A stretch of 64,000 bases of DNA, from the NCBI GenBank assembly GCA_905178155.1, contig CAJINV010000007.1, positions 1,124,627 through 1,188,626 of the forward strand. Direction: 5' to 3'. This DNA is from Amoebophrya sp. A120 (taxonomy: Eukaryota; Protista; Dinoflagellata). The notes under the pieces were generated by a model, which saw only the letters and a program-made list of their open reading frames with translations, had not been told where the DNA came from and ran no database searches. A program made the translations under genes and the position numbers. This document shows, one piece after another, positions 4,956 to 45,713 of this stretch (within the stretch, counting starts at the first letter, position 1; every line of letters starts with the position of its first letter).

Positions 4956-7900
4956 TTAAAATTGGACTTCATACGCACCACTGCGCGCTGCTTCAAATCC
5001 ATAAATTTTGTTCAGCCAGGAGAGCTGCTGACACCGGTCCACGAAGAAACCCAGCGGGAGGCAAAACTGCCGCAAAACCTCCTCCGCCTCGACCAGCGAC
5101 CGGCCGACAAACGATTCGTGCAGGTATCGGAAGTTCTCGCGCAGACAGAGCTCCTCCTGTTCCCGCTCCAGCTTGCTGCCCAACACTTTCGCCGTGTCGG
5201 TGGAGTGCACCGGCATTTTGAACACAGACGAAAATTTCTTGCCCTGCCGCGGGTGGTCGGACGTCGCCCAGCCCTCGCTGTTTTGGATGAAGTAAAAGAA
5301 CATGCATGTGCTCGTTCACGACTCATAAGAACTTTTGAACCCTCATAGTGTTGACTGTTGAGCTTGAAAAAGCCATCTCTAATATTACCGTCCCAAATGC
5401 TTTTTCTATTCTTATTCTCTACGTACCTTTGATCGCAGGTGTTTGTGTCCTGATCCGTCGGTTCAGGGGAGAGAAACAAGGGGGTAAACCGCCCCGTGTC
5501 CGACGGTGTCATGGGCACCGCGGAGTCGTGCCCGCGGCTCTCAATTCCCCCGCGGATGGTGGTCGCGGCGGTGGAAGGGGGGAGGATCACTTCGTTGGCG
5601 TATTTTTTGAAAACAATGTCGTCGGAAAAATCTACGGGCGCGTACGTGTTGACCAACCGGTGGAATTCTAACGCACCGGAGGTGGTGTTTTCGTCGTAAA
5701 TTTCCTCGTCCTGCCCCTGCAAGTGCAACGACTGCCACAAAGCCTCGTGCGGGGACTTGGGCAAGACACAAACGGACGAGAGTTGCGACTGCAGAGAAGT
5801 ACCACTGCCACCCTGTGGCCCGCCGCCGAACGTGTTCTGTCGGTCCGTGAGAATCCCGGATTTCGACCCGGTTGCACTCCTCCTCGGAGCTCCCTATCCC
5901 AGAGAAAAAAGCAGGCAGGGCATATCTCTTGTAAGTATATGCAAAAATAAATGAACAATGAAACCCCAAATAGCTCGAAGAACCCTGTCATCTTCCACCA
6001 AGTGAAACATCAATGGTGAGGTGCCCAGGGCCCCTGGTGGTGAAAAATAAATACTTAGATACACAGAAAAATCTGCCATGGGCCGCCCCATAGCATGCTT
6101 TTCAGGATGCGCAGCGTCGGTTTTTTTGTGCATTTATTTCTGCGTTACAAATATGACCTGCCTGCTTTTTTCTGTGTGATACTCCCATGTGGTTGTTCAT
6201 AGAAACGCCACTCGTTCCGTACTCGTCCACGCCACTGAGCAACTTCGACTGCGACCTTTTGCTGCTCCTCCTGGTGTTGTGACTCACGCTGGCACTGGAC
6301 TTGAACTTCTGCGCCTCCGCGACGCGTTTTCGGATCAGGGAGACGGTTGCCCCCGGCTCCAACAGTTCCTCCAACCCGGACTGCAGGGACCCGTGCAACC
6401 CCAGGCACTTCGCGCGAAGGAATTCCAGGTTCAAACTCGGGGAGACAACCGACAGCGCGATCAAGACCTCGCGCAGGGATACCCGCCCGCAGCTCAACGG
6501 GTTGTCGATGCAGCTGACCAGGTCTTGCACAAAGGAGAGGGGTATTTCGCCCAAAATACGGGTGAAAACGCGGTGCAGTTCCGTGACCGTCAGGTGGTTC
6601 CAGGATTTCTTGTCCGGGCCGACGACCAGAAACGCCATGTTCTGAAACGCGTCTACGGTGGACTCGAAATTTTCCAGAATCCTCTGTCGGAGTTGCGTCA
6701 GGATCTCCACGGTTGGCGGCGTTACGGAGGTTTGCTTGTTCGTCATCATGGTCGTCGCTCCGGTCGTTTGCAGTTTCTCGTGCGAGGGTGACGCGGGGGA
6801 GTGAGCTCCAGAGGAGGTGTTGTTGTGATAATTGTTCACCTCTCCCGGCTGGTTATTTTGCTGCTGTTCTGAGGAACCACCATTACTTGAGGACGAGGAT
6901 GCGGAATCTCCGGCAAGAATCGGGCTCGACCCCCCAAGGCAGACCAACACGTCCTCTAACGAAACCGTCATGACCGGCGCGTTCTCCCGGAATTTTGCCG
7001 GCTTATTCCCGCTAGCACTCGGCTCGAGGTCCTCCTCCTTGCTATCCCACAGAAAGAAAAGCTAGTACAATGCGGCCACATTGATTTGTACTGCAAGAAT
7101 GAATCCACCGAAAAATCTGCCATGGGCGAGCCTACTATAGTGAACGTGGTATTTAGCAAGGTTTTCGCTTTATTCCTTTTGTTCGTGTAACGTATCTGCT
7201 GTATTCATAATTTTTGCATAGTATACAAATGTGACCTGCTAGCTTTTTTCCGTACGATAGTTGCTCCCCAGCGCCTGCGTCGAGCTTCTTCTTGGAATCG
7301 ATGGCCGTGTGGTCGCGACGGACTTTTCGATCCCCTGCTCCGCCTCCAGCTCCGCCTGCTCGCGTTGGATTTTTTCGAGCAGTAGCACCTCCGGTGGGCG
7401 GAGGAGCTGCAATAACTCCTTATTCTGCTCCGCGGACTGCTGCTTACTATCCTTCTTCAGTTCCCCCTCCGCTTCTGTAGCGGGGCTTTTCGCAGCAGCG
7501 GCTGCATCCTGTGCTCCACCTATTTCGTCTTCGTCCTCCTCATCCTTCTCCTTTTTGCCAAAACTAATCCCTTTCAACTGCATGGGGTCGGGGTTTTTCA
7601 AAAACATTTCCAGCTGTTCGGCACTTATCATGTGGGTGCGGACCGCAATGGTCTCCCCCAACTTCCTCATCTTCTCCTCCCGCTCCTTTTTCAGGCGGAT
7701 CTCTCGCAGCTTTTGCTCGTCCGTGATCTGGCTCGCCTGCATCTCCGCGATCCGCTTTCTTTCCCGCTCCAGCTCCCGCTCCCGTTCCTGCACGGAGCAG
7801 GGCATCTTCTGCGAGCTGGTGGTCTTTTGCAGAAAATCGCTGCAGATACACCGCCGCTTCGCCGCCACGTGCTGCCGGATCAGCTCAAACGCCTGCCTGC

Positions 7901-10559
7901 CCGTCGCCGCGTCGCACACGCGGCCCTTTTCCAGCAAAATGGTGAAGGTCTGCTTCGTCAGCTGATTCGTCCAGTACGCGCCCGTGGAAACGCCGTGGTT
8001 GGACAGCACGAGCAGTCTTTCCAGCGCTTTCCTCACCTGGATTTCCTCACTCGGGTTCCCGCCCGACTGCTGGAGGAGTTTTTTGAAGTCCTGCAGATCA
8101 AAACGCTTCAGGTTCATCACCTTCACGATCTTGCGGTCGGTGATGGTCCCCTTCATCGCATCCCTCACCTGATCCATGCACTTCTCGGCGGCCTCGTGGT
8201 ACTTTGCGTCTTCCCTTGCATGCTGCTTTTGTTCGGCGGCGGAGCTTTCTGCGGCCTTGTGCTCGGGATCCTGGTAGAAGTTTCATTATACGTGAACATG
8301 TTGATCTTGTTTCTGCCCCCGCGGAGCACACGCACACCATATCAAATACGTCTGCAAATAACCTCATACTAGAAGACCGCATTTGTTGAGCAACGAGCTT
8401 GCTCCTGGGAGACCACAACTAGGTACCCATGCCGCTTTATATTCCGCATAGACAAATACAGCACGAGGACGACTTGCTCACGACGACCCTAACCCTCCTT
8501 AATCGACGATCAAAATAAGTAAAAACTCGAGTTGTACCTCTTCCACAGCTTCTTTCCTCTCCGCGTGGAGGTCTGCCGGCCGCGCGGTGCTGATGGCCTC
8601 CCGGATTTCGTCCTGTGTCTTCTGCTTGAAAAAATTCTTCTCCAGCCCCACTTCGGTTTCCTCCGCTGGGAGCATGACTTCCAGTGCTTTGTACGCTTCG
8701 GACTCCGCCAAATCGAGGATAACCTTCCGCGCCGTCCCTTTGGCCCGCAAAATCGACGACTGGTCTGCGGAAAGTCTGAAGGCCGGGCCCTGCGTGGATT
8801 TCGCCAAATTCTTCGGTATCCGGAACTTTTTCAACGAGGCCGTGGACAACTGTTCTTGCGACAAGCTGTGCGGGTCTGCGTTGTTCAAGTTGTCCCCGCT
8901 CGCCGAAAGGTTATTTGTGGAGGACATCATGGGCATCATGGGCGTCGCGGGCGAGGTCGCGGCTACGGACGTGGGCGATGGCCCAGCGGTGGTTTCCTCC
9001 TCCGCCAGTGGGTCTTCCTCGCTGGAGGGCATGTCCTGCCGCTTGGATAACTCCAGGAAGAAGGAGAGAAAAAAATCGCCCACCATCCGGGGCAGCTGCC
9101 GCAGGGGGAGCGGCGGCGGCGCGGAGATGGACTTCAGGACGGAACTGTAGGCGTCCGTCAACTCTTGCACTTGGTCTAGCCTCTCCCCCTCGGGCAAAAT
9201 CGCGGCGGCGCAATTGTCCGGAAGGCCGGCGCCGACCCGGTGGTCGAAAAAGTAGAGTACGTACCGCAGCATCAGCTGCACCAACGGGTCGTCCTTTGAA
9301 AACAACGGGGAGAACTGACAATCAAATGCAAAAGTATCCCATACATGTACGAGTACTTCTTGCAATCACGCGAAGACAAGTCTTGACGTGCCTCGTCAAC
9401 ATAATAACTCAGCATTTGACAAGCTCCATAGCATAATATTTCATGCTGAGCAAATTTTTCGTGACGTGATGCAAGTTGTATTTTTACTACTCGTACGATA
9501 CAACTTTTGCAGTGCGTAGTGACTCAGCTTTGACGATCGCACGGCGGACGAGTTCTCGACGGCATCGAGCAAGTAGTCCCGGAGCTCCTGCAACAATTTG
9601 AAACCCGCTTTTTTGCTGACCCTCTGCAGTGGGTCCACCGCGAGTTCCTGGAGTATTCGCACGAGAAACTGCCCGCTGGATTCCTTCCGCCCGAGCTTGA
9701 TGCCAATGGCCTGCAGCGACCGGACCTTCTGCCAAACGGTGTGCAGGTACAGAGTTTCCTCCTTCTCCTCAGCCTTGCCGTCATCCTCCACGCGGAAGCT
9801 GAATAGCCTGAAGATGTTTGTATTTGCCTTGCCTGTCTCAGCTGCAGATTCTTCAATTCTTTTCCCTTACGTCGTTTTGGTTTTGTAGTCATGCGCGCAC
9901 GAAACAAGCAGCATTGCAAGCAAAAGTACAGCATTAAGTACTTCCTCTTGGATGTTGCCCTCCTGGCTGCCTCTGCCTCCTCCTCATCAATTGGCGGCTT
10001 CGTGTCCGGTTCCGCGAGGCTTTTTATAAAGTGGTCCGAAAGCTTCCGCCATTTCCTCGTCGCACCCGTTTCCTGCGAATTAGATTCATCAGACAGAGTA
10101 TTACGGGGCGGGTGGAGATCTAGATCACCGACCGATCAGCTAGTTATAGTAGCTGATGTATGATATTATGAAACACTTTATTCCTCACGCGACGCAAAAC
10201 TCAAATACCGCTTGCTTTCCTGGACTGCCCGGCTTACTGCGCCCGATGGTGCGCGGCTTTACCAGTGTGTACCGGCCATCCGCGCCACCTTTGGGGTCGC
10301 TGAAGCCCCGCTTTTTCCTCTTTTTCGCATGGTCGTGATCGTCGAACAAACCGCCAACGTTCTCAAATACGAAGGAATCTTCGGGCAAACCCTTTTCCGA
10401 CAAAAGCACGTTCGCTCTCGTGTAATTTTTCACAAAGTCCAATTTGTTCGGAAGCTGCTCCTTGAGCCGACTGCGGTCCCGCTCGTCTTGGCTGTGCACG
10501 TTGCCGCGGAGCGCGGTCTTCTCCAAGAGGGAGAACTCGTGCCTGACCAGGCGGGGCAT
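4956..10559 (-). CDS. multi-exon hypothetical protein (coiled-coil, degenerate EF-hand-like segment)
   Basis: ORFs 10185..10559, 9441..9791, 8499..9365, 7239..8177, 6102..6971, 5012..5764 and 4956..5303 join in frame through GT-AG introns and three TIR introns (junctions SKLSH/FSPLF, LGSN/EEDLE, HMG/APRRS). Confidence 0.65.
5895..6181. mobile_element. TIR introner, family B, 287 bp
   Basis: tatcccagagaaaaaagcaggcagg ... cctgcctgcttttttctgtgtgata; perfect TSD ctccc (5890-5894, 6182-6186); excision restores frame. Confidence 0.9.
7043..7259. mobile_element. TIR introner, family B, 217 bp
   Basis: tatcccacagaaagaaaagctag ... ctagcttttttccgtacgata; TSD cttgc/gttgc; shares internal aaaaatctgccatgggc with 5895-6181. 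Confidence 0.85.
9320..9518. mobile_element. degenerate TIR introner, family C, 199 bp
   Basis: aatcaaatgcaaaagt ... acttttgcagtgcgta; TSD ctgac/gtgac; frame restored. Confidence 0.7.
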
Positions 10560-10599
10560 GTCGATGGAGCTTTGTGAAGATTGTGCTGTCAGTTAATAG

Positions 10600-11178
10600 A
10601 GTTACTGTTTCGAGGGTTCTTCACATTAGTTTCTCTGCCCGTGCTGTTAGAGCTCCGATGATCGCGATCATGGATAGGTAAAAACAGAAGTACAACCGAT
10701 GGACGTTAGTATGTACTGTGCAATTACAATGCCACCTGCTTAGAAGCAAAGCAACGACGCCGACGTGAAGGAGCTCTTCTGAGTGAGACGATAAGAGAAG
10801 GTCCACGACAAACTGTGAAACTTCTGATTAATACACTTTATTTCACCACACTCTCGAGCAGCTCCACTGGACTACAATATCGACGCACATTTATTTCAAG
10901 AACCAAAGTTAGCACTATCTTCAACGACGACGATGGATATGGAAAAATTTCGGTGCCAGAAGTTGTATTGTTTGTTACTAGCGAACCAAAATTAATCGAC
11001 GTGGACTAAATGACGACTCATGCTCATCTGGTGCCGACTCACTACTTAAATGTACTCCACAGCGAATCGAACCACCACCACGCGGTAGGTTTGACAATTC
11101 TGAACGAACAGGCTCGTGCGCTGAAAACAAAGCAAGGTGTAGCATTTGTACGATGGATAGTTATTCTTGTTTCCCTGC
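10600..11178. repeat. direct repeat copy A (~580 bp), downstream of TEP gene
   Basis: colinear with 18105-18648, e.g. ggacgttagtatgtactgtg, aaacttctgattaatacactttatt, ctgaacgaacaggctcgt. Confidence 0.92.
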
Positions 11179-11240
11179 TCCATGAATTTATGCGTTCAAC
11201 AAGGTTTTTTAGAATTTTCGCAACACAGCCAGTACCAGAC

Positions 11241-14200
11241 CTACGCGAGAGCACTCGCCGCTGCGAGAACAGCGATAGCCAGCAGCCCCGACCAACCCCT
11301 CCACGATGACTGCAGCTCAGCGCCGGATGTCTCCCCTCCGCCGCCCCCGCTCAGGATCTCATCGAATGACAGCCCGGCGCTTCCTCCAGAACCCGCTGTG
11401 AAATCGACCGCAATTTCTTTGTTCTGCTCAGGCCGGTAGTACATGAAGAGTTTGACTTCCTTCTCTTGCCGATTCTGCACCACGAACTCCTCGCGCGCTT
11501 TGAGAGAAAGCGTAAACGCTCCACTTCCAGTACTACCGGTTGCTGTGCTACTGCTACTTCCGCCGCTCGGCAACGAGTCGAGGTAGAGGTGCAGGAAGCC
11601 TTCGTCTGTATCCACCTCGACGCGGTCGATTTGGGTGCCGGTCGCGGTCGTGGCGGCCCCAGGTGGAGAAGACACAAGCGAAACGGAAGAAGCCAGCCTC
11701 TCCCGCTCCGCCGCATCCACCACAGTTCCGGTAAAAAGACCAATACTCAGCATCGTCATTTCGCCGGCATTCGAGTGGTAAGCTGCGGCACAATTGGGGT
11801 TTGATGTTGCTGGATCCTTCGGTGCAACGCGGAGAGCGAGGAGGTAGGACTTCGGACTTGTTTGCGACGAGGATGTGGATGATGCTGACGTGGTTGAGGC
11901 TTGATTGTTTGCTGTTGCTGCGATTTCGATTTCACTTTTGTCCTCATTGAACCACTTCGCGACGAAATCCAGACAATCGTCGAGTAGAGAAGAATTGTTA
12001 GTCGGTGAGTTCTTGTTGCTGTCACGCACGTTGAATTCTTGAAGGACAGACACAACCGCTGTTCTTTCGCTGACGGCCGCACTTTGAGAAGCCGCGACGA
12101 CGACGGACTCTGAGGAGTTGTGCGCTGGTTGCTGTTGTGGTTGTTCCAGGCTTTCATCAACCAGAGTTTCGTTGTAAATCTCAATCGTGTGGTAGAGCTC
12201 GGGGTCAGTCATGTCGTAGTGGAACAAAGCTGATGATGTTGATGCTGATGCAGCCGTGCTTGTGGACGAGGAGGTGCCAGCTGCGGTAATATTATGTGTC
12301 ACGTCAAACACCATGCTGCCGCCGCCGTCGCTAGTGCTTCCAGAAACAGCCATCTCGAGGAGCTGAAATTCAGCGATCGCCTCCAACGCCACAACCGTGT
12401 CTTGCGTCGACCGGAACCCCCCTGCGCTCGACCGGTGCTTTAAAAGCCACTTCACGCCAGAGTAGGCATTGTTTAGATCCCCGGCAGCCACCAGAATCAA
12501 AACCGCATACGCTGTGAGCTCTATGGAGGCAGCAGAAGGCTCGTTTGGCTTATTACGGAAATACATTGCGTTCGCACTCGCAACAGCATTCGCTGAAGAA
12601 GAGGAACCGCTCTCTGCTGGTTCCTCCCAGTACGTCAGTCCCTCGCTATCGCGTTTCGTCAACAGCAGCACCGACGATTTGGCAAGACTCCTTTCGATTT
12701 TCGTGTGTGCGGGCTGGTCGCGTAGAGCAGTTTCAGCGGCTCGAAGCAGTGCGTAGACAGCTATCACCTCGGCAGCCACTGATCTGCTCGCTTCGGCACT
12801 CAATGTTCTACTTGACCATTCAGCCTTTACCCAGGCACTTGCTTTGCGTATCGCAAGGACCAGATCTCGCATGGTGGTTTCAATCAGAGTCGTTGGTCCG
12901 GTTGCAGCGCTGAGGGAGCTGCTGCCTTCCGACGAAGCCCCCGTGGTGACGACCGACGCTCCGTACGAATAAACGCCGCCGAAGTACTCCCGATCCAGCT
13001 CCCGCCAGATAGAGCAGAGCGTCAGTAGGACGAAGGAAGTCAGACTCAGTCGCGACTCTTCAGTACTGCCCATCATGGTTCGGCTGAAGACGCGGCCGCG
13101 GCTTACGAAGTAATGCGAAGAGGCATCTTGCGCACTGAGGATGAAGTTGATCGCCGGAACGAGGTTTGGCCAGTCAATCGACACTGCTTGTTGTGCCTCA
13201 CCTCCCTCCATCAACCTGCCAACGTACCCTGCGCGCCCCACGTCTGCGAACACGCGAAGCGAAAATGCAGTCAGCCACAAGCTGCTTCCTTCAAAATTAC
13301 CCCGCCGCCCTGTTTCACCATAAGCTGAAAACCCTCCGTCAGATTTGCTTTTATAGTTTAGTTGCCGGACGTAGCCCGTCCGCATGTTGCTGAATAAACG
13401 CTGCTTCAAAGCTTTTCCTTGCACACCGCGGTTTACGATATACGCTTTTGAAGCGAGGTAGCGAAAGACGTACACATTGGGGGCGAGGGACATGAGGTTT
13501 TGTTCTCCGCAGCCGTAGGGCACGCGCACGAGGCGTTCGATGTTCGCAATCGTCTGGGATAGCAGCTCGCCGGTGATCGCAACCGTGAGACGCTTGCTGT
13601 CGGGGACTACTACACCTGCTCCCGCTGACAGGGCGCCCCCTTGTTCATCCTCGCCGTCGGAGGACCACGACAAGCCCACCGTTTGTGATTTTACGCTACC
13701 ATCCGTCGGTGTTGTGATCAACAGGTTTGTTCGTTTCAGTTTCTTGACGCCTTCCGGCTTGACGAGGAGAGAGCGCTCGATGCGGTCGACATACGCAACA
13801 CGGGACACCACGCTGGAATACGACGAAGCTGATGTCGACGCCCCGGCAGACAGCACCACAGCGCAGTATACCTCCAGCCGTACCTTGCTCGGTTTCAAAA
13901 TCGAAGTCCGCCCGGCCGCAGTGCTGACGGGAATCGGGAAAGCGGTCGCGCCGGTCTTCGAAATGATTCTCGCTTTTTTCAGTTCGTAGCTGTTCAAGGC
14001 TTCTTTGCCTGTGCCGCCACTAGTCGCGGCTGCAGGTCCAAGTGCAATCTCACCCACACTGTCATACTCGTTCAACAGGTCTTGGAACTCTAATCCTCGG
14101 CTGACAGCGATCTGCCAAGTGCACTCGAGGAGGTTCGAGTCCGGCACTGAATATTCTCCCTTCAAGTGCGCTGCGACACTTCCTCGCAGCGCTACCAGTT

Positions 14201-17200
14201 CTCCTCGCGTGATCGAATACGGCATACGCACGTCTGCAACCACAGGCTTCGCCACGATGAGTGACGGCAATACCACATCCGTTCCCAACCCAATTCCAGG
14301 GTGAATGGCATATCCTTGTAGATCCCACGTCGTCAGCGAATCCGGAACTGTCGTGCGGAGTAGCGAGGCATTCACGTAGTTCATGTTTTCCCAAAGCCAC
14401 GTTTCGGGGAAAAAGGTGCGGAGCTTACTCTGCGCGGCGACAGACGGGGCTCCACTTGCGCTTGAAGAGGTTGTGGAAGCTGAATCTCCACTCCGTGTCG
14501 AGTCGGCAGAACTGGGCGCGCCGGCGGGCGTCGCGACTGCTACCTCCACTGTTATCCCCATCCCGCCGTCACCTGCGCAATATCCCCGCGGAAGGATCGG
14601 CTCACAACTTGTGAGTGGCAGCGCGGAACCCGAGAAGGAGTCCAATTGCAAAGAGCCAATTCCGAGCTGTTCGAGGACCCGAGCCTCGTCGTAGAACTCG
14701 CGGCACATGACACTGGCCGCGCTAGAAGTACTAGTACCGGCAGTGGTCGTGCTAGTTGCCGCAGTAGTTTCCCCCGCAGATTTTGTGTGAGACACAACGA
14801 TTTTTCCGGATAACAAGTTGGAGTCGGCGGTTAAGAGTGAGACGGCGCGGTCTTGAGCGGAAAAAAAAAGCTTCGTGGCAGTGTCGTTAGAGAAAGTAGA
14901 TGATGTTGCTGTGGTCCCAACATCAGATGACACTGCAACTGCTAGGTGCGCGTTCACTCCAGGCAGAACAGATGACCCATTTAGCGGCACCAGTTCTGTA
15001 GAACTTGTCCCCTCCACCGCGTCGGCCAGCCATGAAGCACTCACACTGCCAAAACTCGTTTTATTTCCAGCAAATAATGAAGCCGATCCCTCCGCTACTT
15101 CGAAACGCACACTGTCTGCAGCCTTCGCGGATAACGCTGTCGTCGTGTTTTTCGAAGTAGGAGTAGCGCTGATCAATGTCACTACTGCGTTGAACTTACT
15201 CCCAGGGCGCGAGAAAAGATTTGCACCAGATGTTGAAGACGCATCCAGCACCAAATCCGTGATGTTGACGCTACCGACGTAGTAGGCTACGCTTTCAACG
15301 GTGCCCACTGCGCGAGTGGTAGTAGTCGTCGTGGTTGTGACCGCCGACGCGCTCGTTGCTGTGACACCATAGTAGTGCGGGTAGCTCGCTTGCGGCCTCT
15401 GATGCACAATTACAGAATCCGTGACTTGGCGCAAAGTGATGTTACAGCAGGAAACATTTTGGGCGGAAGCGAAAAGGCGGGCTGGAGACAGGTTGACGGG
15501 GTAGAGAATGTAGTTCTTGCCCGAAGCTAAAGCACCCTCTTGCTCATCCTCATTTGACAGTAGCATCACGTTCACCGACGTAACGTGAGGAAGTGTTGTT
15601 CTGAAGTGCACGACGTATGAGTCTACTGGTTCAGTCGCATTGTTCACCTCTACTGCGCTCATCAAAAGCTTTCCTGCGGTCGCGTAGTGCCCTGTCGGAG
15701 AGTACTTCCGATTCGCACAAGCCGTGTGCGAGTCCGATCGAGTTGTAGCTCCCCCCGTAGATGATGAGCCCCCTGCCGTCGTAATTTGCACGCCATCCAC
15801 TCTCACGAACGCCCTCACCGTCTGCACACAGCAACTTATCTTTACGTGATCCGAAGACCACGCGTTCAAAGGTCCGGTCGCTGCGGAATACGCGCCAAGA
15901 TCGCAGCAAGTTCGGTCTGTTTCAACAGGTATCGGAACAGTGAATAATTTGCTTTTTAAAGTCTTCAGCTTCATGTTCGACGAACTGCTCGTAGTAATTC
16001 CCACTGATGTTGAACTGCCATCTTCCAAAAACGGCCCCAGGTCCACCTCCACATACTTCGGGCGCGCGCTATAGCGCTGATGAGAAAACTCCACATGCAG
16101 CTCTACATCGGGTGAGGAGGAAGAAGTTTTTACAAACGCTGTGAGGTCCTCTACAAGCACATGGAAGGGCAGACCGGGTTGAAATTCCTTGTCGGACGTG
16201 ACCCGAACCGCCGTCGACGCGTATTTTATCTCGATACCCTCGCTGCTTCGCATCTCTCCAGACGCAATGTCCGTGCAATTCGCGGTTACCCGGATTGCGT
16301 CTAGATTTCCATTGTCATGCTCCTGTTTGAGGAGGTCGCGGAGCGTTTGCGTAGGTGAGGTCGTCGTCGCGGCATCAAGGTCCACTGTGAAGGCAAATCG
16401 AGCGGAGGGGGCTCCTGCATTACTACTCGTAGCAGGTGCGGCATTTGTAGGACCACTAGCGTCTACCTCGATGATAGTCAAAACCGAATCCGTGCAGATA
16501 GAGTAGGGTGGGGGCGACGACAGCTTCCTTCTTGGTTCTTTATGCGTATTTTGGGAAATAACGACAGACTCCAAATCTTGGCCGTCTTCTCCATCTTCTT
16601 CGGCATAATTCTCGGGTTTTAATACTTCGCTTGCAGCTGCACGGCGTCTGAACATAATCTCCGGCATGAACGGCCCACTGCTCCAGCCGTACGACCACAC
16701 CGGGCACTTTCTAACAACCTCGACGGATATTCTGTCGTCTTTGCACTTCACGTCTCCTCCATAATTGTACGATGCGGTGACAAAACCCTGGATCGCGGTG
16801 GGCGAGGAATGCTGGCTGATGATCTTAGAGTATGAAGTTCCATCATCTCCAAGTTTGAGGTCTACACTGAACGTTGGCAGCACATATTCTTCCACGTTCC
16901 AAGTAAGTTGATTCGATGTCGCAACTTCCCGCGTAGCGTTGTTCGTCGCTGAAGATGCGTTCGGTACCCACAGCAACTTCGCTTTTGCGGAGTACGTATC
17001 CTTGTTTCCACCTGCAGAAGCACCACCGATGTTTGCCGGCAGCGGAAATTGCAAGTGGTCTTCGTTGTCGAACACGCCGTAATAAAGAGAAGTGGATATT
17101 GTACCAGTTGAAGAAGACTCCACCGCGGTCGAATTCTGTGTCGTCGATGAAGAGGATATTGGTCCACCAGTTGACCGTAGCTTTGCGATCAGCAGCTCTT

Positions 17201-17864
17201 CACTTTCCGAAACCACTTTGCGCAATTGGATCTCGGCTTGCCAGGTTCCAGTTTCACCTGACCACGACGATGACATCAAGTCCAGCGGCTTCGACGTCAC
17301 TCTGTCCATGGCAACAGCACGAAACTTTACCACCCCACCCGGCTTGTAAATCGCCTTGTCTGCCTCCAGGAAAATCACTTCGCGATTCGCAACGGAGACA
17401 GGCACTTCAAGTTGTACAACTTCCGCGGCGACATTTGAGGCTGAGGAGGTCTCAGGCATCTTAGTTACGTGTCGGAAACGGAAGGAGTGCTGCGCCAACG
17501 TCGTTGTGCCAGCGGAAGGTGAGGATGACGACGGCATGAACGGCAGCAGCGTGCTGAGTGAAGGGACTTGAAGATCCACTAAGCTGTTTCCTGAGGTCGT
17601 GCCTCCTTCGGAACTTGCGCCTCCGCTTACCGCCGTGCTGTTTGCAAGAACGACTACGTCGCCGCCAGACAGCACTCCTGCTCCGCTAGCTGTGGGTCCT
17701 CGTGCCAGCAGCTGTACGAACGAAGTGCTGCCGTTTTGATCAGTTGGTACTAGAATCTGAACCGTATCACCAGGGAAAATCGACTTTGGAGGAAGAAAAG
17801 CCGCGGACGCGAAGACGCGCGAGAGGGCGAGTAGGAAAAAAGACTGATGCTTGAGTCGCATCAT
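11241..17864 (-). CDS. thioester-containing protein, alpha-2-macroglobulin/CD109-like, signal peptide and GPI-like tail (2207 aa)
   Basis: Motifs DKAIYKPG, VEEYVLPTF, RTFFPETWLW, VPDSLTTW, PYSITRGE, PYGCGEQNL (GCGEQ at 13500-13514), WLTAF, GGFRSTQDTVVALEA, MYYRPE; first ATG at 17864 precedes a hydrophobic leader; intronless. Confidence 0.93.
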   Translation of the reverse strand: MMRLKHQSFFLLALSRVFASAAFLPPKSIFPGDTVQILVPTDQNGSTSFVQLLARGPTASGAGVLSGGDVVVLANSTAVSGGASSEGGTTSGNSLVDLQVPSLSTLLPFMPSSSSPSAGTTTLAQHSFRFRHVTKMPETSSASNVAAEVVQLEVPVSVANREVIFLEADKAIYKPGGVVKFRAVAMDRVTSKPLDLMSSSWSGETGTWQAEIQLRKVVSESEELLIAKLRSTGGPISSSSTTQNSTAVESSSTGTISTSLYYGVFDNEDHLQFPLPANIGGASAGGNKDTYSAKAKLLWVPNASSATNNATREVATSNQLTWNVEEYVLPTFSVDLKLGDDGTSYSKIISQHSSPTAIQGFVTASYNYGGDVKCKDDRISVEVVRKCPVWSYGWSSGPFMPEIMFRRRAAASEVLKPENYAEEDGEDGQDLESVVISQNTHKEPRRKLSSPPPYSICTDSVLTIIEVDASGPTNAAPATSSNAGAPSARFAFTVDLDAATTTSPTQTLRDLLKQEHDNGNLDAIRVTANCTDIASGEMRSSEGIEIKYASTAVRVTSDKEFQPGLPFHVLVEDLTAFVKTSSSSPDVELHVEFSHQRYSARPKYVEVDLGPFLEDGSSTSVGITTSSSSNMKLKTLKSKLFTVPIPVETDRTCCDLGAYSAATGPLNAWSSDHVKISCCVQTVRAFVRVDGVQITTAGGSSSTGGATTRSDSHTACANRKYSPTGHYATAGKLLMSAVEVNNATEPVDSYVVHFRTTLPHVTSVNVMLLSNEDEQEGALASGKNYILYPVNLSPARLFASAQNVSCCNITLRQVTDSVIVHQRPQASYPHYYGVTATSASAVTTTTTTTTRAVGTVESVAYYVGSVNITDLVLDASSTSGANLFSRPGSKFNAVVTLISATPTSKNTTTALSAKAADSVRFEVAEGSASLFAGNKTSFGSVSASWLADAVEGTSSTELVPLNGSSVLPGVNAHLAVAVSSDVGTTATSSTFSNDTATKLFFSAQDRAVSLLTADSNLLSGKIVVSHTKSAGETTAATSTTTAGTSTSSAASVMCREFYDEARVLEQLGIGSLQLDSFSGSALPLTSCEPILPRGYCAGDGGMGITVEVAVATPAGAPSSADSTRSGDSASTTSSSASGAPSVAAQSKLRTFFPETWLWENMNYVNASLLRTTVPDSLTTWDLQGYAIHPGIGLGTDVVLPSLIVAKPVVADVRMPYSITRGELVALRGSVAAHLKGEYSVPDSNLLECTWQIAVSRGLEFQDLLNEYDSVGEIALGPAAATSGGTGKEALNSYELKKARIISKTGATAFPIPVSTAAGRTSILKPSKVRLEVYCAVVLSAGASTSASSYSSVVSRVAYVDRIERSLLVKPEGVKKLKRTNLLITTPTDGSVKSQTVGLSWSSDGEDEQGGALSAGAGVVVPDSKRLTVAITGELLSQTIANIERLVRVPYGCGEQNLMSLAPNVYVFRYLASKAYIVNRGVQGKALKQRLFSNMRTGYVRQLNYKSKSDGGFSAYGETGRRGNFEGSSLWLTAFSLRVFADVGRAGYVGRLMEGGEAQQAVSIDWPNLVPAINFILSAQDASSHYFVSRGRVFSRTMMGSTEESRLSLTSFVLLTLCSIWRELDREYFGGVYSYGASVVTTGASSEGSSSLSAATGPTTLIETTMRDLVLAIRKASAWVKAEWSSRTLSAEASRSVAAEVIAVYALLRAAETALRDQPAHTKIERSLAKSSVLLLTKRDSEGLTYWEEPAESGSSSSANAVASANAMYFRNKPNEPSAASIELTAYAVLILVAAGDLNNAYSGVKWLLKHRSSAGGFRSTQDTVVALEAIAEFQLLEMAVSGSTSDGGGSMVFDVTHNITAAGTSSSTSTAASASTSSALFHYDMTDPELYHTIEIYNETLVDESLEQPQQQPAHNSSESVVVAASQSAAVSERTAVVSVLQEFNVRDSNKNSPTNNSSLLDDCLDFVAKWFNEDKSEIEIAATANNQASTTSASSTSSSQTSPKSYLLALRVAPKDPATSNPNCAAAYHSNAGEMTMLSIGLFTGTVVDAAERERLASSVSLVSSPPGAATTATGTQIDRVEVDTDEGFLHLYLDSLPSGGSSSSTATGSTGSGAFTLSLKAREEFVVQNRQEKEVKLFMYYRPEQNKEIAVDFTAGSGGSAGLSFDEILSGGGGGETSGAELQSSWRGWSGLLAIAVLAAASALA

Positions 17865-18104
17865 TCTAGAGTGAAACTGGTTCAGAAATTGCAGCGAAAT
17901 ATTGCGTCCTGAGATATCGATATGCACGGTAGATCTGATATATAATGGGTAGTACGGGGCCTGGTGCTGCGGAGAATGGCACGATGCCGCGAAGTGAGAT
18001 ACTAGCGCAAGTAAAGACGAAGCCGATAGACATCCGACATTGTTCCACTCGTCTGCCGGGGCAAGTAGATGAGTTTTGAGTACATTTGTGAGTTTTGACC
18101 TGCA

Positions 18105-18648
18105 AGTTACTGTTTCAAAGGTTCTTCACATATATTTTCTCTGCCCATGTTGGAGCTCGGAAGATCGCGATCATGTTCATGGAGGGGTAAAAATGGAAGT
18201 ACAACCGAGACCGACGGACGTTAGTATGTACTGTGTATTACAATGCCTGCTTAAAAGCGAAGTAACGACGCCGACGTAAAGGAGCTCTTCTGAGAAGGGC
18301 GATGAGAGAAGGTCAACGACAAACTAAAACTTCTGATTAATACACTTTATTCCACCACACTTTCAAACAACACCACTGGATTACAATATCGACGTATTCT
18401 CAAGAACCTAAGTCAGCACTATCGACGACGACGATGGATATGGATATACTGATAATTTCGGTGCTAGAAGTTGAAGTTGTATTGTTACTAGCGAGCCAGA
18501 ATGAATCGATGTGGACAAAATGACGATTCATCTGTACTTCACAGCGAATCGAAACACGCAGTGGGTCTGACAATGCTGAACGAACAGGCTCGTCCGCTGA
18601 AAACAAAGTAAGTAACATTTGTACGATAGTTATTCTTTTTTTCCATGC
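18105..18648. repeat. direct repeat copy B (~545 bp), upstream of TEP gene
   Basis: diverged colinear copy of 10600-11178 with several indels. Confidence 0.92.
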
Positions 18649-19456
18649 AGAAGAAGATTCCGAGCCTTAGCACTGCATAGTACTGTTCACGAAGCAGTAG
18701 ATGAATCGAAGCGAGTCTTTGGTCGTGTGATGAAGTTGCCCTCAAGAGTAAGTATTTTACAATTCATAAAAAAAGATACATTTTGAATTCACTGATTGTA
18801 CAGCCAGTGCTACCACATCTGAATCATACAAAATCTAGTGGGTCTACAAATAAAAGTTCAGCTATCGTATATTCAACGAGAGTACGAATTTTTCGAACGG
18901 AGTCTAGCCGCGGTCATTGCTCATGCAACATGATGAGGGCGACTGATTTTAGCTGAATCTTACATGAAGAAGTCTTTTGATGTCCTTTTCATTTTACAGT
19001 TGTTGAGCTGTTTTCCATCAGAAAACAAAGTACTTTAATATCGTCACGCATGTCAACATCGCAACGGGGCCGCTACTTCTAAAGGTTCATACTGTTATAT
19101 ATTTCATGACGCTTGATTGTTACCCTAGCCGTTTTCAAAAAGCTGCAACGGTGAAGGCCATCAATGTCGCCCATTTAGTACAAGTAACGGTTTATGCCTA
19201 TCATACATAGTTTGCGATTTTTTGGCTTTCACAGAAGAGTATGGGCTGCTTTTGGCAGAAAGGGAACGAATGCATCCGCGTCCAGGACTACTTACAAGAG
19301 TAGTACTAGTAGAAGTGGAATACGTTTACGTTCGAAAAAAGAAGGCAATTTGGTCTGTCAAGAGTCTGGTGCGTCTGCGTTTTACAAAAGTAAGTTCTTG
19401 GAATGGAGGTAATGCAGCTTGCAGCTTTCATCAGATGAACGATTACAATAGGTCCA

Positions 19457-22400
19457 CTACCTAACCTCCAGCTGCTTCACGACAGTTTTTCCGTTTTCCT
19501 CTTTGCTGCCGCTCCGTTTATCAAACCACAAGGGACGGCGTAACAACGATCCCACCGCACGAAAAATGCCAGATGTTGCCTCTGGAATCGCCTCCATCTT
19601 TTCCACGGGCCCGCCGCCAAACTTGTTCGGAAACTCTCTGGGCTCGAATTCGTAGTCTGCAACGAATTTCTCGCCACTTTCCTGCTCCAACTTCGACCGC
19701 TTTTCCTGCTCTGCCTTCTGGCGCTTTTCCTCTTCGTCCGGCGTAACTGCAGCGAAGCTGTCTTCCCGGCGGTACCACCAAGGCAAATCTCCTGCGCCGG
19801 AGAGGCCAATGCTGTACGTTATTCGTTCGTGCGGGATGTGCATCTGGTACGACTTCCATTCCTTTGACAAATTTTCGCCCGCTGCTTCTGCATCTGGGTC
19901 TTGTAACAAGTGCGTGTTGCCCAGAAAGTAGTCATCGGCCCGGTTTCGGAGTCCCGCGAAGCTTGGTCGTTCCGCGTCTTTTTCACAAGAGAAGTCTTCC
20001 AGTAAACGCTCCAAAGCATCCAGCTCGTTCGTGCCGCGGTTTCGCTTTTCGGTTTGCCAGTTGTTTTTGGAAAGAGAAGGAGCAGGATCTACAACGGCCG
20101 CGGGAGAAGCGACGTGGTAAATAGTAGGCTCAGTCGTAGATGATGCTCCTGTCGAAGGGAAATGCACAGAACCTGTTGTAGCTGGCTGCGGCCGTTCACG
20201 ATACTTCTTACGCGCGAAGACCAGAAGGTCTGGGAGCGTTGTTCCTGGTCCTTTGGGGAGAAGAGATCTGCAGATATCCGCTTGCGGATCGGAAGCAGAA
20301 GGAGAAGCCAAGTCGACAGCGTCTTTCTCGACAGGAGTTGGTACAGTTTGTTCGTGTTCCGTTTGCATCATAAGTTTGTCACCTTCTAGTGCTCCCGTGG
20401 TGTCCTCCTTTGGACCACTTCGTTCAGCCGCAGCATGTTCTGTACTGGTAGCCGCGCCAGCAACAGAAGAACTCGATGACAGTCTTTCCAAGACCTGTTG
20501 TGCATGCCTCCGCTCGTCCGCATCCGGAAATTTTCCGGAATGGTTTTCGGCCACATCCTGCCAATTGACAAGCGACACTGCATCCGTTTCGGCGAAATCC
20601 TTCAGCAGTCTTATCCGCAGCTTCAACGTCCTCAGAAAAATCGTCTCCCAGAGGTGTTTCCGCGCGTTTTGCTTCACGGGGTTCCTTTTGCCGGTTGCAT
20701 TTCCACCACCAGCAGTCGTTGCGCTGGCGCTAAACGGCGGGTCTTCCGGTTCCGCCTTACCAGGAGCCTTTCCCGTTTGCACTCGACCGCTAGGACCGAA
20801 GATAAGATTCGGTGCTGTGTAGTTCGATGCAGTCTTTTTTATCGCACCACTGTCCTCTTCATCAGTCATCGTTGTGTCCATCGGTTGTAGTACGGGATTT
20901 TTGTGCAGCTCTACGTCCTTTATTGCTGCGGCTGCTTCATCGTCGTGTTCCTGTTCTAGTACTTGACCGACGATAGAAGAAGTGGAACTAGACTCACTAC
21001 TACTTCCCGCCCCCGCGTCATTTATTTCATCAAAAGTTCTACGCTTTTTCCGAGCCGGCTCTTCCTCGCCCGCTCCTTCGTCTACTTCTGAACCGTCCTG
21101 TGCTTGTACTTTTCTCTGCTCCACTTTTTTATCAGCAGCTCCCTGTTGTTGTTTCTCATCCACCTCCGCATCGTTCCACTCAAAATCCTTCCAAAATCCC
21201 AACTCGAGACAGGTGGTCACAAAATCCCTACACGGCTCCAGCACCCCTTCCCGATCGACTGATTTCTCGCACATCTTCCAAAAACGGCCCGGCTGCAAGT
21301 AGACTTGGCAGACTCTTGCACCTAATGGGTTAAGAAGTTTCAATCCCTCTTCAATTCTCCGCTTTTCCGTCTCAATTGATTTTTTCTTCGCCTCGAGCTG
21401 GACCAAAAGCCGCTCCTGCGCGTCAATCCGGGAGGAATAAAAAACTGCTCCGGAAGAAGTAGAAGTTCCAGTTCCTCCTTCTTCGTGTAGTTTTGGTGTC
21501 GAATAACGCCTCGCAGGAGCAGGCGGGACCCCGAGCACTTGTCGCGGACCAACCTGCGCCGGCAAAAGCTCGGCGTTCGGCAGCAGCCCAGAAAAAACAG
21601 CACCCATCTTCTGTAGTTCCAGAATAGTAATATCAGGCAACGACGACCACGTGGAGAACCTCTTGCGCTTGTTGTTCTGTGGTGGGCCGCTTCTTGATTG
21701 TTCGGGATTTGGTTCATCACAAGAACCTGGGTTCCTTTGTACCCCGCTTGAAGATGGCGCACCTCCTCGTCGTCCCTCGACGGCAAAACTTTCCCGTGAA
21801 GCAGGAGCAGTTCCTCCGCTGCTCCCTCCAATAACCGTATCCACAAACCTGCGCTTGCAAGAGTTCAGGGCGAGCCGCTTCTTCATTTTTCTTTCCGCGC
21901 GCATCTGCTCTATTTTCAAGTTCCGTAAATCTTCCTGCGCCCTCGCAAGCTGCTTGTCGGTTTCGGGGATGCGGGATAAGGTCAAAGTTCTCAACGTTTC
22001 CTTTTCATTTTTCCAAAACATCCGATCGAAACCATCCAGAACTGCTTGCACGATCTTTTTCTTCGTCAGACCCGAAAAAGCAGAGGTGTTTTCATCCTGG
22101 TAGTTCCCTACTGTACTAGCGCGTGGTGTAGTTCTTGTGCTCCCATTTTCATCGGAAGTTGTAGAGGGAGGCGATATAGTCGGGGAAATAAACTGTGCCT
22201 GTGGAACTGGAAGAAATTGGTCCGCATAATTTTTCACCAGTGTGTCCAACTGCACAGCGCGGGCTTTATTTCGCGCTGCAAAGGCATCGCCTTCCTTCTG
22301 TTGGGGAGGCGGATATTGCAAGAGCTCTACTGCTTCACCCTGTAACTGCAAAGGAGAAGAGTCCAGAACCAAATAGGGCAGCTCATCACTTTGTTCCTGA

Positions 22401-23371
22401 AGCTTCTCGTTCTTGACCGTCTGCTTATCATGATCTGCAGGGCTAGGCGGAGAAGATGAGGATGAAGCAGTTTCTTTTTCAGACGGAGCAACAGTACCGC
22501 CCAGGGAGCTCGTAGTAATGCAAGTTGTGGAGCCAGGAGCTGCAGCGGCACTGGACGAAGCCGCGCTACTGCTACAGCTGCCGCCGTTTGATCTTCTGCT
22601 CTTCGTGGTCCTCCCAAGAAATAAGCGAGCGTCAATAGTGCCTTCTTCTTCGGAAGCTTCTGCACTGACTGCCTTCATCTCGAGAAACGGCCTCTTTTTC
22701 GGCCCGGGGGGAACCACAGCTTCTTCTACTGGTGCAGCATCAGCAACTGGATGATATAGATCGGGAACATCAATTTTTTCTACTGCTGCGTCTGCTATTT
22801 TCTTTGCCAAGTCGTCGATAGTACTTTTGAAAGAACCTCCGGGATTGGTCGTGGAGCTACTGCTACTAGTACAAAAACCTCTGGGCAGTTGTGTTACTGA
22901 AGTAGCGTCGCTTCTGTCCAGGTCACGCCACATCTGTGCCAGCTGGTCTTCCATTTTCCGGTCAACCACCTTCAATTGCTCGAACATGAGTTTGTTGTTG
23001 TTCGCTGGAATCTCGGCAATGGATGGAGCATCTACTCCTAAGGTTTTTTCGTGGAAGTCAGACCTCGCCCCAGCGACCGGAAGGAGTTTCCTTCTTTTAC
23101 TTTTTTGTGAATTGCTGAGAGCACCTGCAACATCGTCATGCGTTTTCTCCTCAGAGCTCCCGCTCGTCCACGGCTCTGATCTGCTTCCGAGGATCTTGTG
23201 CTCGTTTACCACGTCGGTTGCGCTTTGTCCTTGTTTGTTCTCGTCGTTGCGTGCGTTCGCGAAAAGCGCTGCAGCTCTTACGCCACAACTTGCGCTGTTG
23301 ACTAAAAATGTTGTTGCACACAACGCGACGAGACGCAGCCAGGCGCATGATAGTCTGAGCTGGTGCGGCAT
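19457..23371 (-). CDS. hypothetical secreted low-complexity protein (1304 aa)
   Basis: long uninterrupted ORF with hydrophobic N-terminal leader and coiled-coil segments. Confidence 0.75.
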   Translation of the reverse strand: MPHQLRLSCAWLRLVALCATTFLVNSASCGVRAAALFANARNDENKQGQSATDVVNEHKILGSRSEPWTSGSSEEKTHDDVAGALSNSQKSKRRKLLPVAGARSDFHEKTLGVDAPSIAEIPANNNKLMFEQLKVVDRKMEDQLAQMWRDLDRSDATSVTQLPRGFCTSSSSSTTNPGGSFKSTIDDLAKKIADAAVEKIDVPDLYHPVADAAPVEEAVVPPGPKKRPFLEMKAVSAEASEEEGTIDARLFLGRTTKSRRSNGGSCSSSAASSSAAAAPGSTTCITTSSLGGTVAPSEKETASSSSSPPSPADHDKQTVKNEKLQEQSDELPYLVLDSSPLQLQGEAVELLQYPPPQQKEGDAFAARNKARAVQLDTLVKNYADQFLPVPQAQFISPTISPPSTTSDENGSTRTTPRASTVGNYQDENTSAFSGLTKKKIVQAVLDGFDRMFWKNEKETLRTLTLSRIPETDKQLARAQEDLRNLKIEQMRAERKMKKRLALNSCKRRFVDTVIGGSSGGTAPASRESFAVEGRRGGAPSSSGVQRNPGSCDEPNPEQSRSGPPQNNKRKRFSTWSSLPDITILELQKMGAVFSGLLPNAELLPAQVGPRQVLGVPPAPARRYSTPKLHEEGGTGTSTSSGAVFYSSRIDAQERLLVQLEAKKKSIETEKRRIEEGLKLLNPLGARVCQVYLQPGRFWKMCEKSVDREGVLEPCRDFVTTCLELGFWKDFEWNDAEVDEKQQQGAADKKVEQRKVQAQDGSEVDEGAGEEEPARKKRRTFDEINDAGAGSSSESSSTSSIVGQVLEQEHDDEAAAAIKDVELHKNPVLQPMDTTMTDEEDSGAIKKTASNYTAPNLIFGPSGRVQTGKAPGKAEPEDPPFSASATTAGGGNATGKRNPVKQNARKHLWETIFLRTLKLRIRLLKDFAETDAVSLVNWQDVAENHSGKFPDADERRHAQQVLERLSSSSSVAGAATSTEHAAAERSGPKEDTTGALEGDKLMMQTEHEQTVPTPVEKDAVDLASPSASDPQADICRSLLPKGPGTTLPDLLVFARKKYRERPQPATTGSVHFPSTGASSTTEPTIYHVASPAAVVDPAPSLSKNNWQTEKRNRGTNELDALERLLEDFSCEKDAERPSFAGLRNRADDYFLGNTHLLQDPDAEAAGENLSKEWKSYQMHIPHERITYSIGLSGAGDLPWWYRREDSFAAVTPDEEEKRQKAEQEKRSKLEQESGEKFVADYEFEPREFPNKFGGGPVEKMEAIPEATSGIFRAVGSLLRRPLWFDKRSGSKEENGKTVVKQLEVR

Positions 23372-24175
23372 CTTTGTGGTCTACCGATTATTTGGGACGA
23401 AATTTTTTCAAAATACGGCTTGCTGCGTGGAGGAGCTCTCTATTTACTTCATCTCAGAAAAAGAGTACTTACACACCTAGTGGACAAAGTTGTAAATTGG
23501 AAACTTCACTACAAAAAACGTACTGCAATACTTCACTACAAACAACTACAGTAGTCAAACCGCAAAGAAGTACCTGACTCGATACAAACGCGTGGATGTC
23601 TGTGATGTCCTAGAAAAGTAAGTAGGAGATCGTGAAAAATAGTAGTGATCTTCTCGTTATGCCCACGGATCGTGCAGCAAGAAATAGTTTTGTTTTCGAA
23701 CACGCTTGAAGCAGATCTCCTCACTCATGCAAAAGTTCGCACAGCAAGAAAATACTGCTGCCTTGTCTGTGGTCTTTCGGATTCTCATCCATATGCTCTG
23801 CGACTACGCATCATGGCGTGGGAATGTAGTAATAATCATCTGAATCTGTACCTGAAACAGTAAAAGTCAACTAAATAAACCGTACTGTCGTCGTGGAGAC
23901 TCATTTTCTGAACTATACTCGATGAACTTGAATCCTGTGTCTCGGGTTGTAGTTGAAATCAAGAATTTTATGGTCATGCCATATTACTATTGGATGAAAC
24001 TGAGACGTTTAGAATCGCAACTATGCCAAACACTTCTAGTGCGGAACGCTAACGCAGCAAGCTGTGGATTTCGATTTAGATTTCACAGTCATCATACAAT
24101 GTCTTCATCAGCCGCCACTTTCACTTTTATTTACGCGTTCCGTCGGAACAAGGCATCCAGGCATGATCCTGGTCC

Positions 24176-43294: not shown

Positions 43295-44212
43295 TTTGAT
43301 ATTTTTATTCGGTATTCATTAAATTTTCTGCGGTAAAAGTAGTATCGAGATAAAAGTAAAACTAGATGTAGTTCCTGGGACCTAATAAATGTAATAAGTT
43401 TCCCGGTGATTCAGGTACAAAACCTTCGCAAATGCTGAAACGGAATAAGCAGCATTGTGCACGGCTTGTCCTCTGTGCAAAATTGAATTAGGATTCGAAT
43501 TGCAAGTGACTGATTGAATCAGGTACAAAAAAGCGGTGAGAAAATATCGAATTCAGCAAACTGGACTAAGTAAGCATTTACATGGGGCCTGCCAACAAAT
43601 ATTCCTCGATTTAAACGGATGCAATCTTGTTCACCTCTCGGGGTACAGCACTTCCGCACCACGTAGTACCTTTGTGTACAACAAAACCTAGAGACTCTCG
43701 TCCCTTTTCCGCGGCCTACTTTCACGCCGCGTCTACAGCACGAATTTTGCGCAACCAAAAGAGGCCAGGCTCGGGCGAGAACATCTTCCATCTATATACT
43801 GCGAAAAACCGCCCACGGTCACGATGATAATGGGCACTTCATCAGTGCCGCCAGGGTCAGTATCATTGGAATGGAAATTACTTGAAACCCATTTGTTGTT
43901 CTTTATGAAACGAGCAAGATATTCTGATCACTTCTATGGCGTAATAATCGCCAGCAGGAGTAGAAGCTCATCATGTATAGTCTTCGTCTTCGTAAAACCC
44001 GAAAAATTCAAGTTCTTATCCCAAAAACTTGAATCTGATATAGCGCGAACTGCTTCGCGCACCGACATCAGCAATAAATGCCAACGGACATAGATCTCCA
44101 CAAAGCACAACAAGCACAACAATTATTATCACAAGCCGCCACATTTCCTTCCTTGCTATCGCCCCTACACCGATGCACCATTCTCCGTCTACTTACTTCA
44201 ACACCAACAGAG

Positions 44213-45493: not shown

Positions 45494-45713
45494 ATTCTTG
45501 TCAATATGTGTGCTACGGTTCCGCCCGATTTGATGTTGTTTTCACGGTCGTGTGCTTTGTTGCTTGTATCTCGTCTGTGACAGAAACGCTGACACACAGG
45601 CTTGTCGTCGTAATTCAAAACGCCAAAACTGAAACCTCTTGAAGATGAGCAAAACAGCGAAACTCTGCTTACTTTCTTCAACGTCCACCATATGTTCGAT
45701 TTTTCTCGTCTGC

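Follow-up and report, generated by a model that had tools for sequence, protein, structure and literature searches.

A predicted GPI-anchored thioester protein of the dinoflagellate parasite Amoebophrya sp. A120 placed outside the animal A2M/CD109 clade

The window analyzed here, a 64,000-nucleotide stretch of the genome of the dinoflagellate parasite Amoebophrya sp. A120 (assembly GCA_905178155.1, contig CAJINV010000007.1, positions 1,124,627 to 1,188,626), contains a gene for a thioester-containing protein (TEP) of the A2M/CD109 superfamily, designated P0001. This protein is probably a glycosylphosphatidylinositol (GPI)-anchored bait-and-trap protease inhibitor on the free-swimming dinospore, likely inherited from a dinoflagellate ancestor. 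Both the superfamily and its chemistry are known; new is a variant in a little-described protist clade. An earlier note, made from the letters alone, had proposed a surface-anchored protease trap or host-attachment factor of animal type; the trap part of that proposal agrees with a GPI-type anchor pattern and with the predicted A2M/TEP fold in native conformation.

Domain architecture and predicted structure

The gene (11241..17864, minus strand, as are all features of P0001 given below) is a single intronless open reading frame (ORF) of 2,207 codons without internal stop, assigned by Pfam and by sequence matches to solved structures, the best of which were human A2M (1e-45), A2ML1, and CD109. 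Pfam matches were obtained for TED (PF07678, 1.8e-53), A2M (6.5e-14), and A2M_recep (PF07677, 2.7e-4), with weak MG2 and MG3 matches under the cut-off. Every motif of the A2M/TEP series named in the earlier note is present in this ORF, i.e., FFPETWLW at residue 1151 (14414-14391), PDSLTTW at residue 1174, PYGCGEQN at residue 1449 (13520-13497), and GGFRSTQDT at residue 1815. The thioester motif Cys1452-Gly-Glu-Gln1455 (13500..13511) is intact, CGEQ being invariant across 59 aligned rows, and the motif set is kept in the A25 orthologue despite 41% identity. The label "complement-like" found no backing: neither anaphylatoxin nor C345C families gave a Pfam match at E<=0.1, and the chain ends in a hydrophobic tail.

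Both termini are as previously described. The N-terminal hydrophobic stretch (Kyte-Doolittle [KD] value 1.79) is a predicted signal peptide comprising residues 1 to about 21 (17802..17864; cleavage site judged by eye), called from hydropathy and conserved in the orthologues; with no Cys before residue 374, a lipobox is absent. The C-terminal tail (KD 2.35) follows the spacer GGGGGETSGA and forms part of a predicted GPI signal (11244..11327) with the omega candidate Ser2180-Gly-Ala, a polar spacer, and a hydrophobic tail without cytoplasmic residues, a pattern present in 3/3 full-length Amoebophrya proteins. The protein contains 23% Ser/Thr and 21 N-sequons. Approximately 670 of its residues, counted over two halves overlapping by 100 residues, sit in columns filled by fewer than one quarter of the non-Amoebophrya rows, and Ser/Thr account for 26-29% of these inserted residues versus 21-22% of the core.

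AlphaFold2 models were computed for residues 22-1100 (predicted local distance difference test [pLDDT] 69.9, predicted template modeling score [pTM] 0.71) and residues 1000-2170 (pLDDT 73.4, pTM 0.74). In Foldseek, the N-terminal half matched the macroglobulin (MG) ring of the C3/C5 beta chain (E 5e-21 over ~1,030 columns, TMt 0.59) and also fitted the MG ring of CD109; judged from the model, the ring, spanning MG1 to the first half of MG6 and bearing long inserts rich in Ser, Thr, and Gly (14781..17801), is real despite the sub-cut-off Pfam matches to MG2 and MG3. Within it lies the CC...CC insert (Cys653/654 and Cys678/679; 15828..15908) that marks the protist clade described below. The ring also holds a disordered acidic insert (residues 391-453, window ~16506-16694) with polybasic RRR/RRK, shared by Ameob2 and A25, which is a possible proprotein-convertase site.

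The C-terminal half matched the MG7-CUB-TED-MG8 body, with a helical thioester domain (TED) inserted in CUB (residues ~1430-1840; 12345..13577) and followed by the receptor-binding domain MG8 (residues ~1965-2153; 11406..11972). Scores against native A2ML1, C3, CD109, A2M, and TEP1 (TMq 0.45-0.49) exceeded that against activated C3b (~0.22), and the models thus support an A2M/TEP fold in native conformation. Linker and bait region (residues 1029-1148; 14421..14780) are disordered at residues 1029-1141 (pLDDT<50), and the bait proper (~residues 1097-1148, within the same interval) is rich in Ser, Ala, and Thr and devoid of aromatic residues, in line with the bait-like segment noted earlier. It is followed by RTFFPETWLW (14391..14420) with its R-x-[YF]-F-P plug; the corresponding plug of A2ML1 (Arg730-Pro734) sets off the conformational change (PMC9156758).

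Relatives and origin of the gene

The nearest proteins are the orthologues from Amoebophrya datasets AT5.2 (62% identity), Ameob2 (58%), and A25 (41%), in agreement with the earlier attribution to a dinoflagellate parasite. A sequence search with P0001 gave 179 matches, and the 120 listed comprised 19 with a CC...CC insert, 6 animal-like, and 95 prokaryote-like proteins, most of the last being classed by lipoprotein signal and tree. FPETWxW, GCGEQ, and GG[FY]xxTQDT were present in 95/95 of these prokaryote-like matches, contradicting the view that the motifs typify metazoans. Green-algal members of the CC clade are Micromonas commoda, Bathycoccus prasinos, and Cymbomonas tetramitiformis; core-dinoflagellate members are Polarella glacialis and Symbiodinium microadriaticum, together with the gene models P0321 and P0333, tentatively assigned to Symbiodiniaceae on account of their identifiers and of 69-93% identity to P0060.

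Querying 1.84 billion representatives with a profile built from protist rows added many more protist-clade members among the best 150 of 12,548 matches, as well as a choanoflagellate protein without the insert (Diaphanoeca grandis P0435); animal and prokaryote rows lack the insert too. P0001 itself carries the CC-x(8-30)-CC insert and the hydrophobic tail and belongs to one supported clade. A hydrophobic C-tail (KD15 of at least 1.5) occurred in 27/37 other protist-clade rows versus 0/8 prokaryote rows. P0435 and the dinoflagellate-side P0409 end in a transmembrane helix with a cytoplasmic tail, not in a GPI-type signal.

Of 598 pattern matches in a GTDB scan, 573 proved to be related, and the best 80 were from Chloroflexota (55), archaea (13, mostly Methanosarcinales), Actinomycetota (7), and others (5). 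Intact-GCGEQ CD109-like lipoproteins (L081-L160) were observed in Dehalococcoidia, Methanosarcinales/ANME, and Actinomycetota, which in the tree lie much nearer to eukaryotic TEPs than the YfaS-like bacterial A2Ms do; a literature search for Chloroflexi or archaeal CD109-like lipoproteins with eukaryotic affinity found no paper. None of the pattern matches was related in a metagenome scan with the Amoebophrya alignment (0/313) or in viral contigs (0/41). A second metagenome scan kept 80/435 matches, none above 37% identity, and hence provided no Amoebophrya-like locus for synteny. A Bathycoccus-like query of the ESM Atlas, which is uninformative for small clusters, returned animal CD109/A2M clusters only.

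Phylogenies were computed with FastTree (265 of 396 aligned rows; 22 were dropped for having <450 match columns and 109 as near-duplicates) and with IQ-TREE in a quick run (68 rows) and a careful run (35 rows realigned with E-INS-i), and all three showed the same topology. The rows include one named choanoflagellate and exclude C3/C4/C5, sponges, and placozoans, and the protist rows are mostly unnamed transcripts that could include prey. In the 35-row tree, Amoebophrya groups with core dinoflagellates and two unnamed rows (100/97) inside a protist clade that includes prasinophyte algae (97/97). Animals are monophyletic (99/97) without any protist row, and a choanoflagellate-like group (95/93) is their sister, not firmly (86/84). 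With the root assumed on the prokaryote group, prokaryote rows are the sister group of all eukaryote rows, and in the 265- and 68-row trees further eukaryote-like lineages branch below animals and protists. The approximately unbiased (AU) test, for groups named once the first tree had been seen, rejected Amoebophrya with animals (p=0.00036), with prokaryotes (p=0.00053), and with green algae (p=0.00019), and likewise a grouping of the entire protist clade with the CD109-like rows from animals (p=0.019).

The N-terminal half, analyzed separately, gave profile scores of 82 bits for core dinoflagellates versus 42-44 bits for green, animal, and prokaryote profiles; it shares the CC...CC insert and a Cys-x-R-x-[YF]-S motif with core dinoflagellates, and its tree nests Polarella in the dinoflagellate group. 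Descent of the gene within dinoflagellates is well supported. The earlier note held that vertically inherited orthologues throughout the alveolates would speak against its own reading. This pattern is half borne out: orthologues do occur in core dinoflagellates (Polarella, Symbiodinium) and group with Amoebophrya, but the named matches included no apicomplexan, ciliate, or Perkinsus.

Beyond dinoflagellates, the history is less firm. The protist clade might be real and yet owe its distribution over algae and dinoflagellates to lateral or endosymbiotic transfer out of a single source instead of to early-eukaryote descent, an account we regard as possible although somewhat doubtful. The patchy named distribution (Mamiellophyceae, Cymbomonas, dinoflagellates) would fit such spread, as would the weak deep branches (choanoflagellates with animals), the many unnamed rows, and the lack of land-plant and fungal finds in PMC9156758. 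It is opposed by the separate groups that greens and dinoflagellates each form within the clade, by the rejection of Amoebophrya with greens, and by the additional eukaryote-like lineages below animals and protists.

Acquisition of the gene from an animal, whether by Amoebophrya or by the protist clade, appears very improbable. It would suit the best solved-structure matches, human A2M and CD109, and the intronless gene with duplicated DNA on both flanks, and it has been proposed for algae: copies in Micromonas, Pycnococcus, and Bathycoccus are known and were ascribed to transfer from animals (PMC9156758), A2M in Micromonas also being noted in PMC4189545. However, the AU tests of both groupings and the monophyly of animals without protist rows speak against it, and the label "animal-type" is untenable for a gene outside the animal clade. 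Of the alternatives "ancient retention or horizontal transfer" in the earlier note, the first gains from these results, whereas transfer from animals does not. The wider protist clade calls the published animal-transfer reading of the three green-algal copies into question. The family called "animal immune" may be older than animals; the 2022 structural paper places its origin within them (PMC9156758). No literature on dinoflagellate or choanoflagellate A2M-family members was found, in a search that covered subscription journals poorly and is hence no proof of novelty; a choanoflagellate CAGE paper concerned a different protein.

Parasite-specific traits and proposed function

The catalytic-His column was anchored on CD109 (GRVIHSELQGG, His), A2ML1 (His), and human A2M (Asn). 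The His is kept in 37/37 other protist-clade rows, 6/6 choanoflagellate-like, 7/7 deeper eukaryote-like, 8/8 prokaryote, and 7/12 animal rows, but in 0/4 Amoebophrya proteins, three of which have Ser (Ser1594 in P0001; 13083..13085) and one, from A25, Asn. A2M and C4A, which lack the His, prefer amines. The His allows the thioester to react with hydroxyls besides amines (PMC9156758); PMC9363628 gave no information on it. The Ser or Asn at this position therefore predicts amine-biased coupling, as in human A2M, and the loss is convergent with human A2M, not due to shared descent. In addition, a furin site (R-x-[RK]-R) is absent from P0001 after the TED, and it was also absent from the one fish CD109 row checked (P0120). 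Human CD109 has such a site and, after bait cleavage, is shed from its GPI-anchored MG8 (PMC12927315); enzymes trapped by P0001, which lacks a furin site before MG8, would consequently stay tethered.

The following mechanism can be envisaged for what is probably a monomeric inhibitor. P0001 would be secreted, glycosylated, and GPI-attached near Ser2180; the Cys1452-Gln1455 thioester would form and be shielded by MG8. Cleavage of the exposed bait by a protease would then let the RTFFP plug leave its channel and the TED swing free, whereupon the thioester, in the absence of the His, would form amide links mainly with lysine amines of the protease and react poorly with sugar hydroxyls. As the chain is uncut before MG8, the trapped protease would remain tethered to the cell, versus the shedding of human CD109. 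The likely use would be as armor against proteases of the host, of grazers, or of bacteria, or to keep in check those that the dinospore itself secretes.

With respect to the life stage, one "CD109 antigen" appears in Table S5 of PMC6176090 under URG1, the genes upregulated in dinospores, for A120 as well as for A25, and it is not listed under URG2, the entry stage; many proteases are likewise reported there as upregulated at the dinospore stage. The listing gives modest support for dinospore expression of the P0001 gene.

Several observations weigh against the anchored inhibitor. The ~670 inserted residues could obstruct trapping, and few proteases may cut a bait lacking aromatic and Leu sites. 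Since Table S5 has no gene ids, the "CD109 antigen" row is tied to the P0001 gene by inference, and as URG1 comprises 33% and 40% of the grouped genes, both strains would agree by chance in ~13% of cases. The loss of the His together with a long branch would be just as compatible with a relaxation of selection on reactivity. Regarding descent, two further points are the long stem of Amoebophrya (1.17) and an N-half tree that puts Amoebophrya inside the protist clade (91, not starred) without settling its position there.

Among other functions, a covalent host-attachment factor is conceivable but rather unlikely: a protease at the contact site would cut the bait, and the tethered amine-reactive thioester would glue the dinospore to host surface proteins in the manner of C3b or TEP1. 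The predicted surface anchor, the missing shedding site, the dinospore-stage listing, and the parasite-specific loss of the His would all suit this role. On the other hand, that same loss would disfavor linkage to carbohydrate on thecate hosts, and the entry-stage group lacks the "CD109 antigen"; moreover, free-living dinoflagellates and algae share the architecture, and the ancestral role was therefore not attachment. Less likely still is a glycosylated structural coat or co-receptor that no longer uses its thioester. Such a passive role would account for the high Ser/Thr content, the inserted residues, the long branch, and the lost His, but not for the retention of CGEQ, the RTFFP plug, and the MG8 motifs between strains with 41% identity.

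Combining the anchored-inhibitor reading with the phylogeny, we tentatively propose a GPI-anchored, His-catalyzed CD109-like ancestor in a unicell that lived before the animal/choanoflagellate and alga/alveolate lines parted, with the Chloroflexota/Methanosarcinales lipoproteins as prokaryotic sister. Animal A2M, CD109, and complement would be its descendants, and the Amoebophrya copy would have been retuned, convergently with human A2M, to amine-specific covalent dinospore armor. Given a supported protist clade that includes dinoflagellates, a choanoflagellate protein next to the animal ones, and a large sister group of prokaryotes, the question of where A2M/CD109/complement arose can be tested directly. 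The biochemical prediction is sharp, i.e., adducts that are amide, not ester, and tethered, not shed. Amoebophrya helps to end harmful algal blooms, and P0001 is a concrete candidate for a part in dinospore survival and in the encounter with the host.

The locus and comparison with known systems

An unspliced 6,850-nt contig from run X3, identical to the window, defines a transcribed unit at 11155..18004 (minus strand), with 11353-17963 covered in run X5 from the same sample. The RNA status of X3 and X5 is a guess backed by splice joints, no run carrying the gene being recorded as RNA; in X3, the neighboring gene is spliced and the intergenic DNA upstream of the P0001 gene is uncovered. Run X8 has the gene in scraps and part of the upstream gene covered, the reverse of X3 and X5, and was not used as evidence; raw RNA reads over 15.6 kb in runs X9-X11 (1, 6, and 0) were too few to judge transcription. 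An 18,554-nt DNA contig, from a run that may be the assembly's source, spans 6153-24706 with zero differences and even depth. Because the unspliced RNA contig covers the gene and the DNA contig joins it to spliced, Amoebophrya-type neighbors, the gene is no contaminant, as the earlier note had argued. Contamination or a chimeric assembly, which an intronless gene in an intron-rich genome or an assembler misled by the flanking repeat might suggest, is practically negligible given this contig, orthologues in three other Amoebophrya datasets, repeat copies 22% different from each other, and a third-codon-position GC content (GC3) of 0.58 within the range of nine neighbors (0.47-0.79).

The shared flanking DNA noted before is a direct repeat of ~575-600 bp (78% identity, E 9e-134), with a downstream copy (10600..11175, unstranded) between the 3' end of the transcript and the 5' end of the next gene and an upstream copy (18105..18644, unstranded). 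Such intergenic DNA on both sides suggests local duplication or relocation of the gene. Capture of the long-terminal-repeat type was not adopted, as the start of the transcript lies ~100 nt past the upstream copy and the other copy belongs to the upstream DNA of the next gene. The duplication corresponds to a whole intergenic spacer, each copy starting close to the 3' terminus of the transcript that precedes it.

All long ORFs of the window lie on the minus strand, as noted earlier. Directly upstream, 19457-23380 (minus strand) is an intronless 1,300-residue ORF with a signal-peptide-like start and no Pfam match. Further neighbors encode an RRP12-like protein (32292-36071), a weakly matching DNA-repair metallo-beta-lactamase (41603-43315), an FkbM methyltransferase (44213-45541), and a protein kinase (58862-59632); no functional link of these four to the P0001 gene was seen. 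Of five introns observed in 7038-10208, two (7039-7260 and 9316-9519) are non-canonical, with 9-nt inverted repeats near their ends, and are spliced in RNA contigs; they are introner-like and match the description of Amoebophrya introners in PMC7789003. A repeat of very high copy number lies at 24680-24990 and about 6000-6180, where in run X1 the summed contig depth reached tens of thousands (near 24.7-25.0 kb) and ~2,400 (in the 6000-6633 bin), likely reflecting an introner or miniature inverted-repeat transposable element (MITE) family. A MITE/introner-like element with a 43-nt inverted repeat occurs at 41353-41614, 25077-25336, and 60873-60916.

Among characterized proteins, human CD109 (PDB 8S3O, 9FX2/9FX3) resembles P0001 in signal peptide, MG ring, bait, CGEQ thioester, MG8, and GPI-type tail (predicted in P0001), and it matches the C-half model with a native-like fold (E 4.6e-34). 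P0001 differs in its position outside the animal clade, the Ser in place of His, the CC...CC insert, ~760 additional residues, and the lack of a furin site before MG8, with no shedding predicted. Human A2M and A2ML1 (MEROPS I39) are the best sequence and the best fold match, respectively, and A2M shares the absence of the His (Asn, as in A25); both are soluble, and A2M is a tetramer, whereas P0001 is predicted to be anchored and is probably monomeric. Complement C3/C4/C5 and insect TEP1 share the superfamily fold, and P0001 lacks the anaphylatoxin and C345C domains of complement.

The Chloroflexota/Methanosarcinales CD109-like lipoproteins have the FFPETW, GCGEQ, and TQDT motifs in common with P0001, whereas they keep the His, carry a lipobox-like Cys in 78/95 cases, and lack the C-tail. 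The proteins of Micromonas commoda (XP_002499844) and Bathycoccus belong to the same protist clade and share the CC...CC insert and hydrophobic tail (Pycnococcus being outside the sequence set), but retain the His, and their MG8 region contains a polybasic site. The nearest named relatives outside Amoebophrya are the unannotated core-dinoflagellate proteins of Polarella glacialis (P0322), Symbiodinium microadriaticum (P0327), and Symbiodiniaceae (P0321 and P0333), which display the same architecture in ~1,500-1,650 residues and, in contrast to P0001, retain the His.

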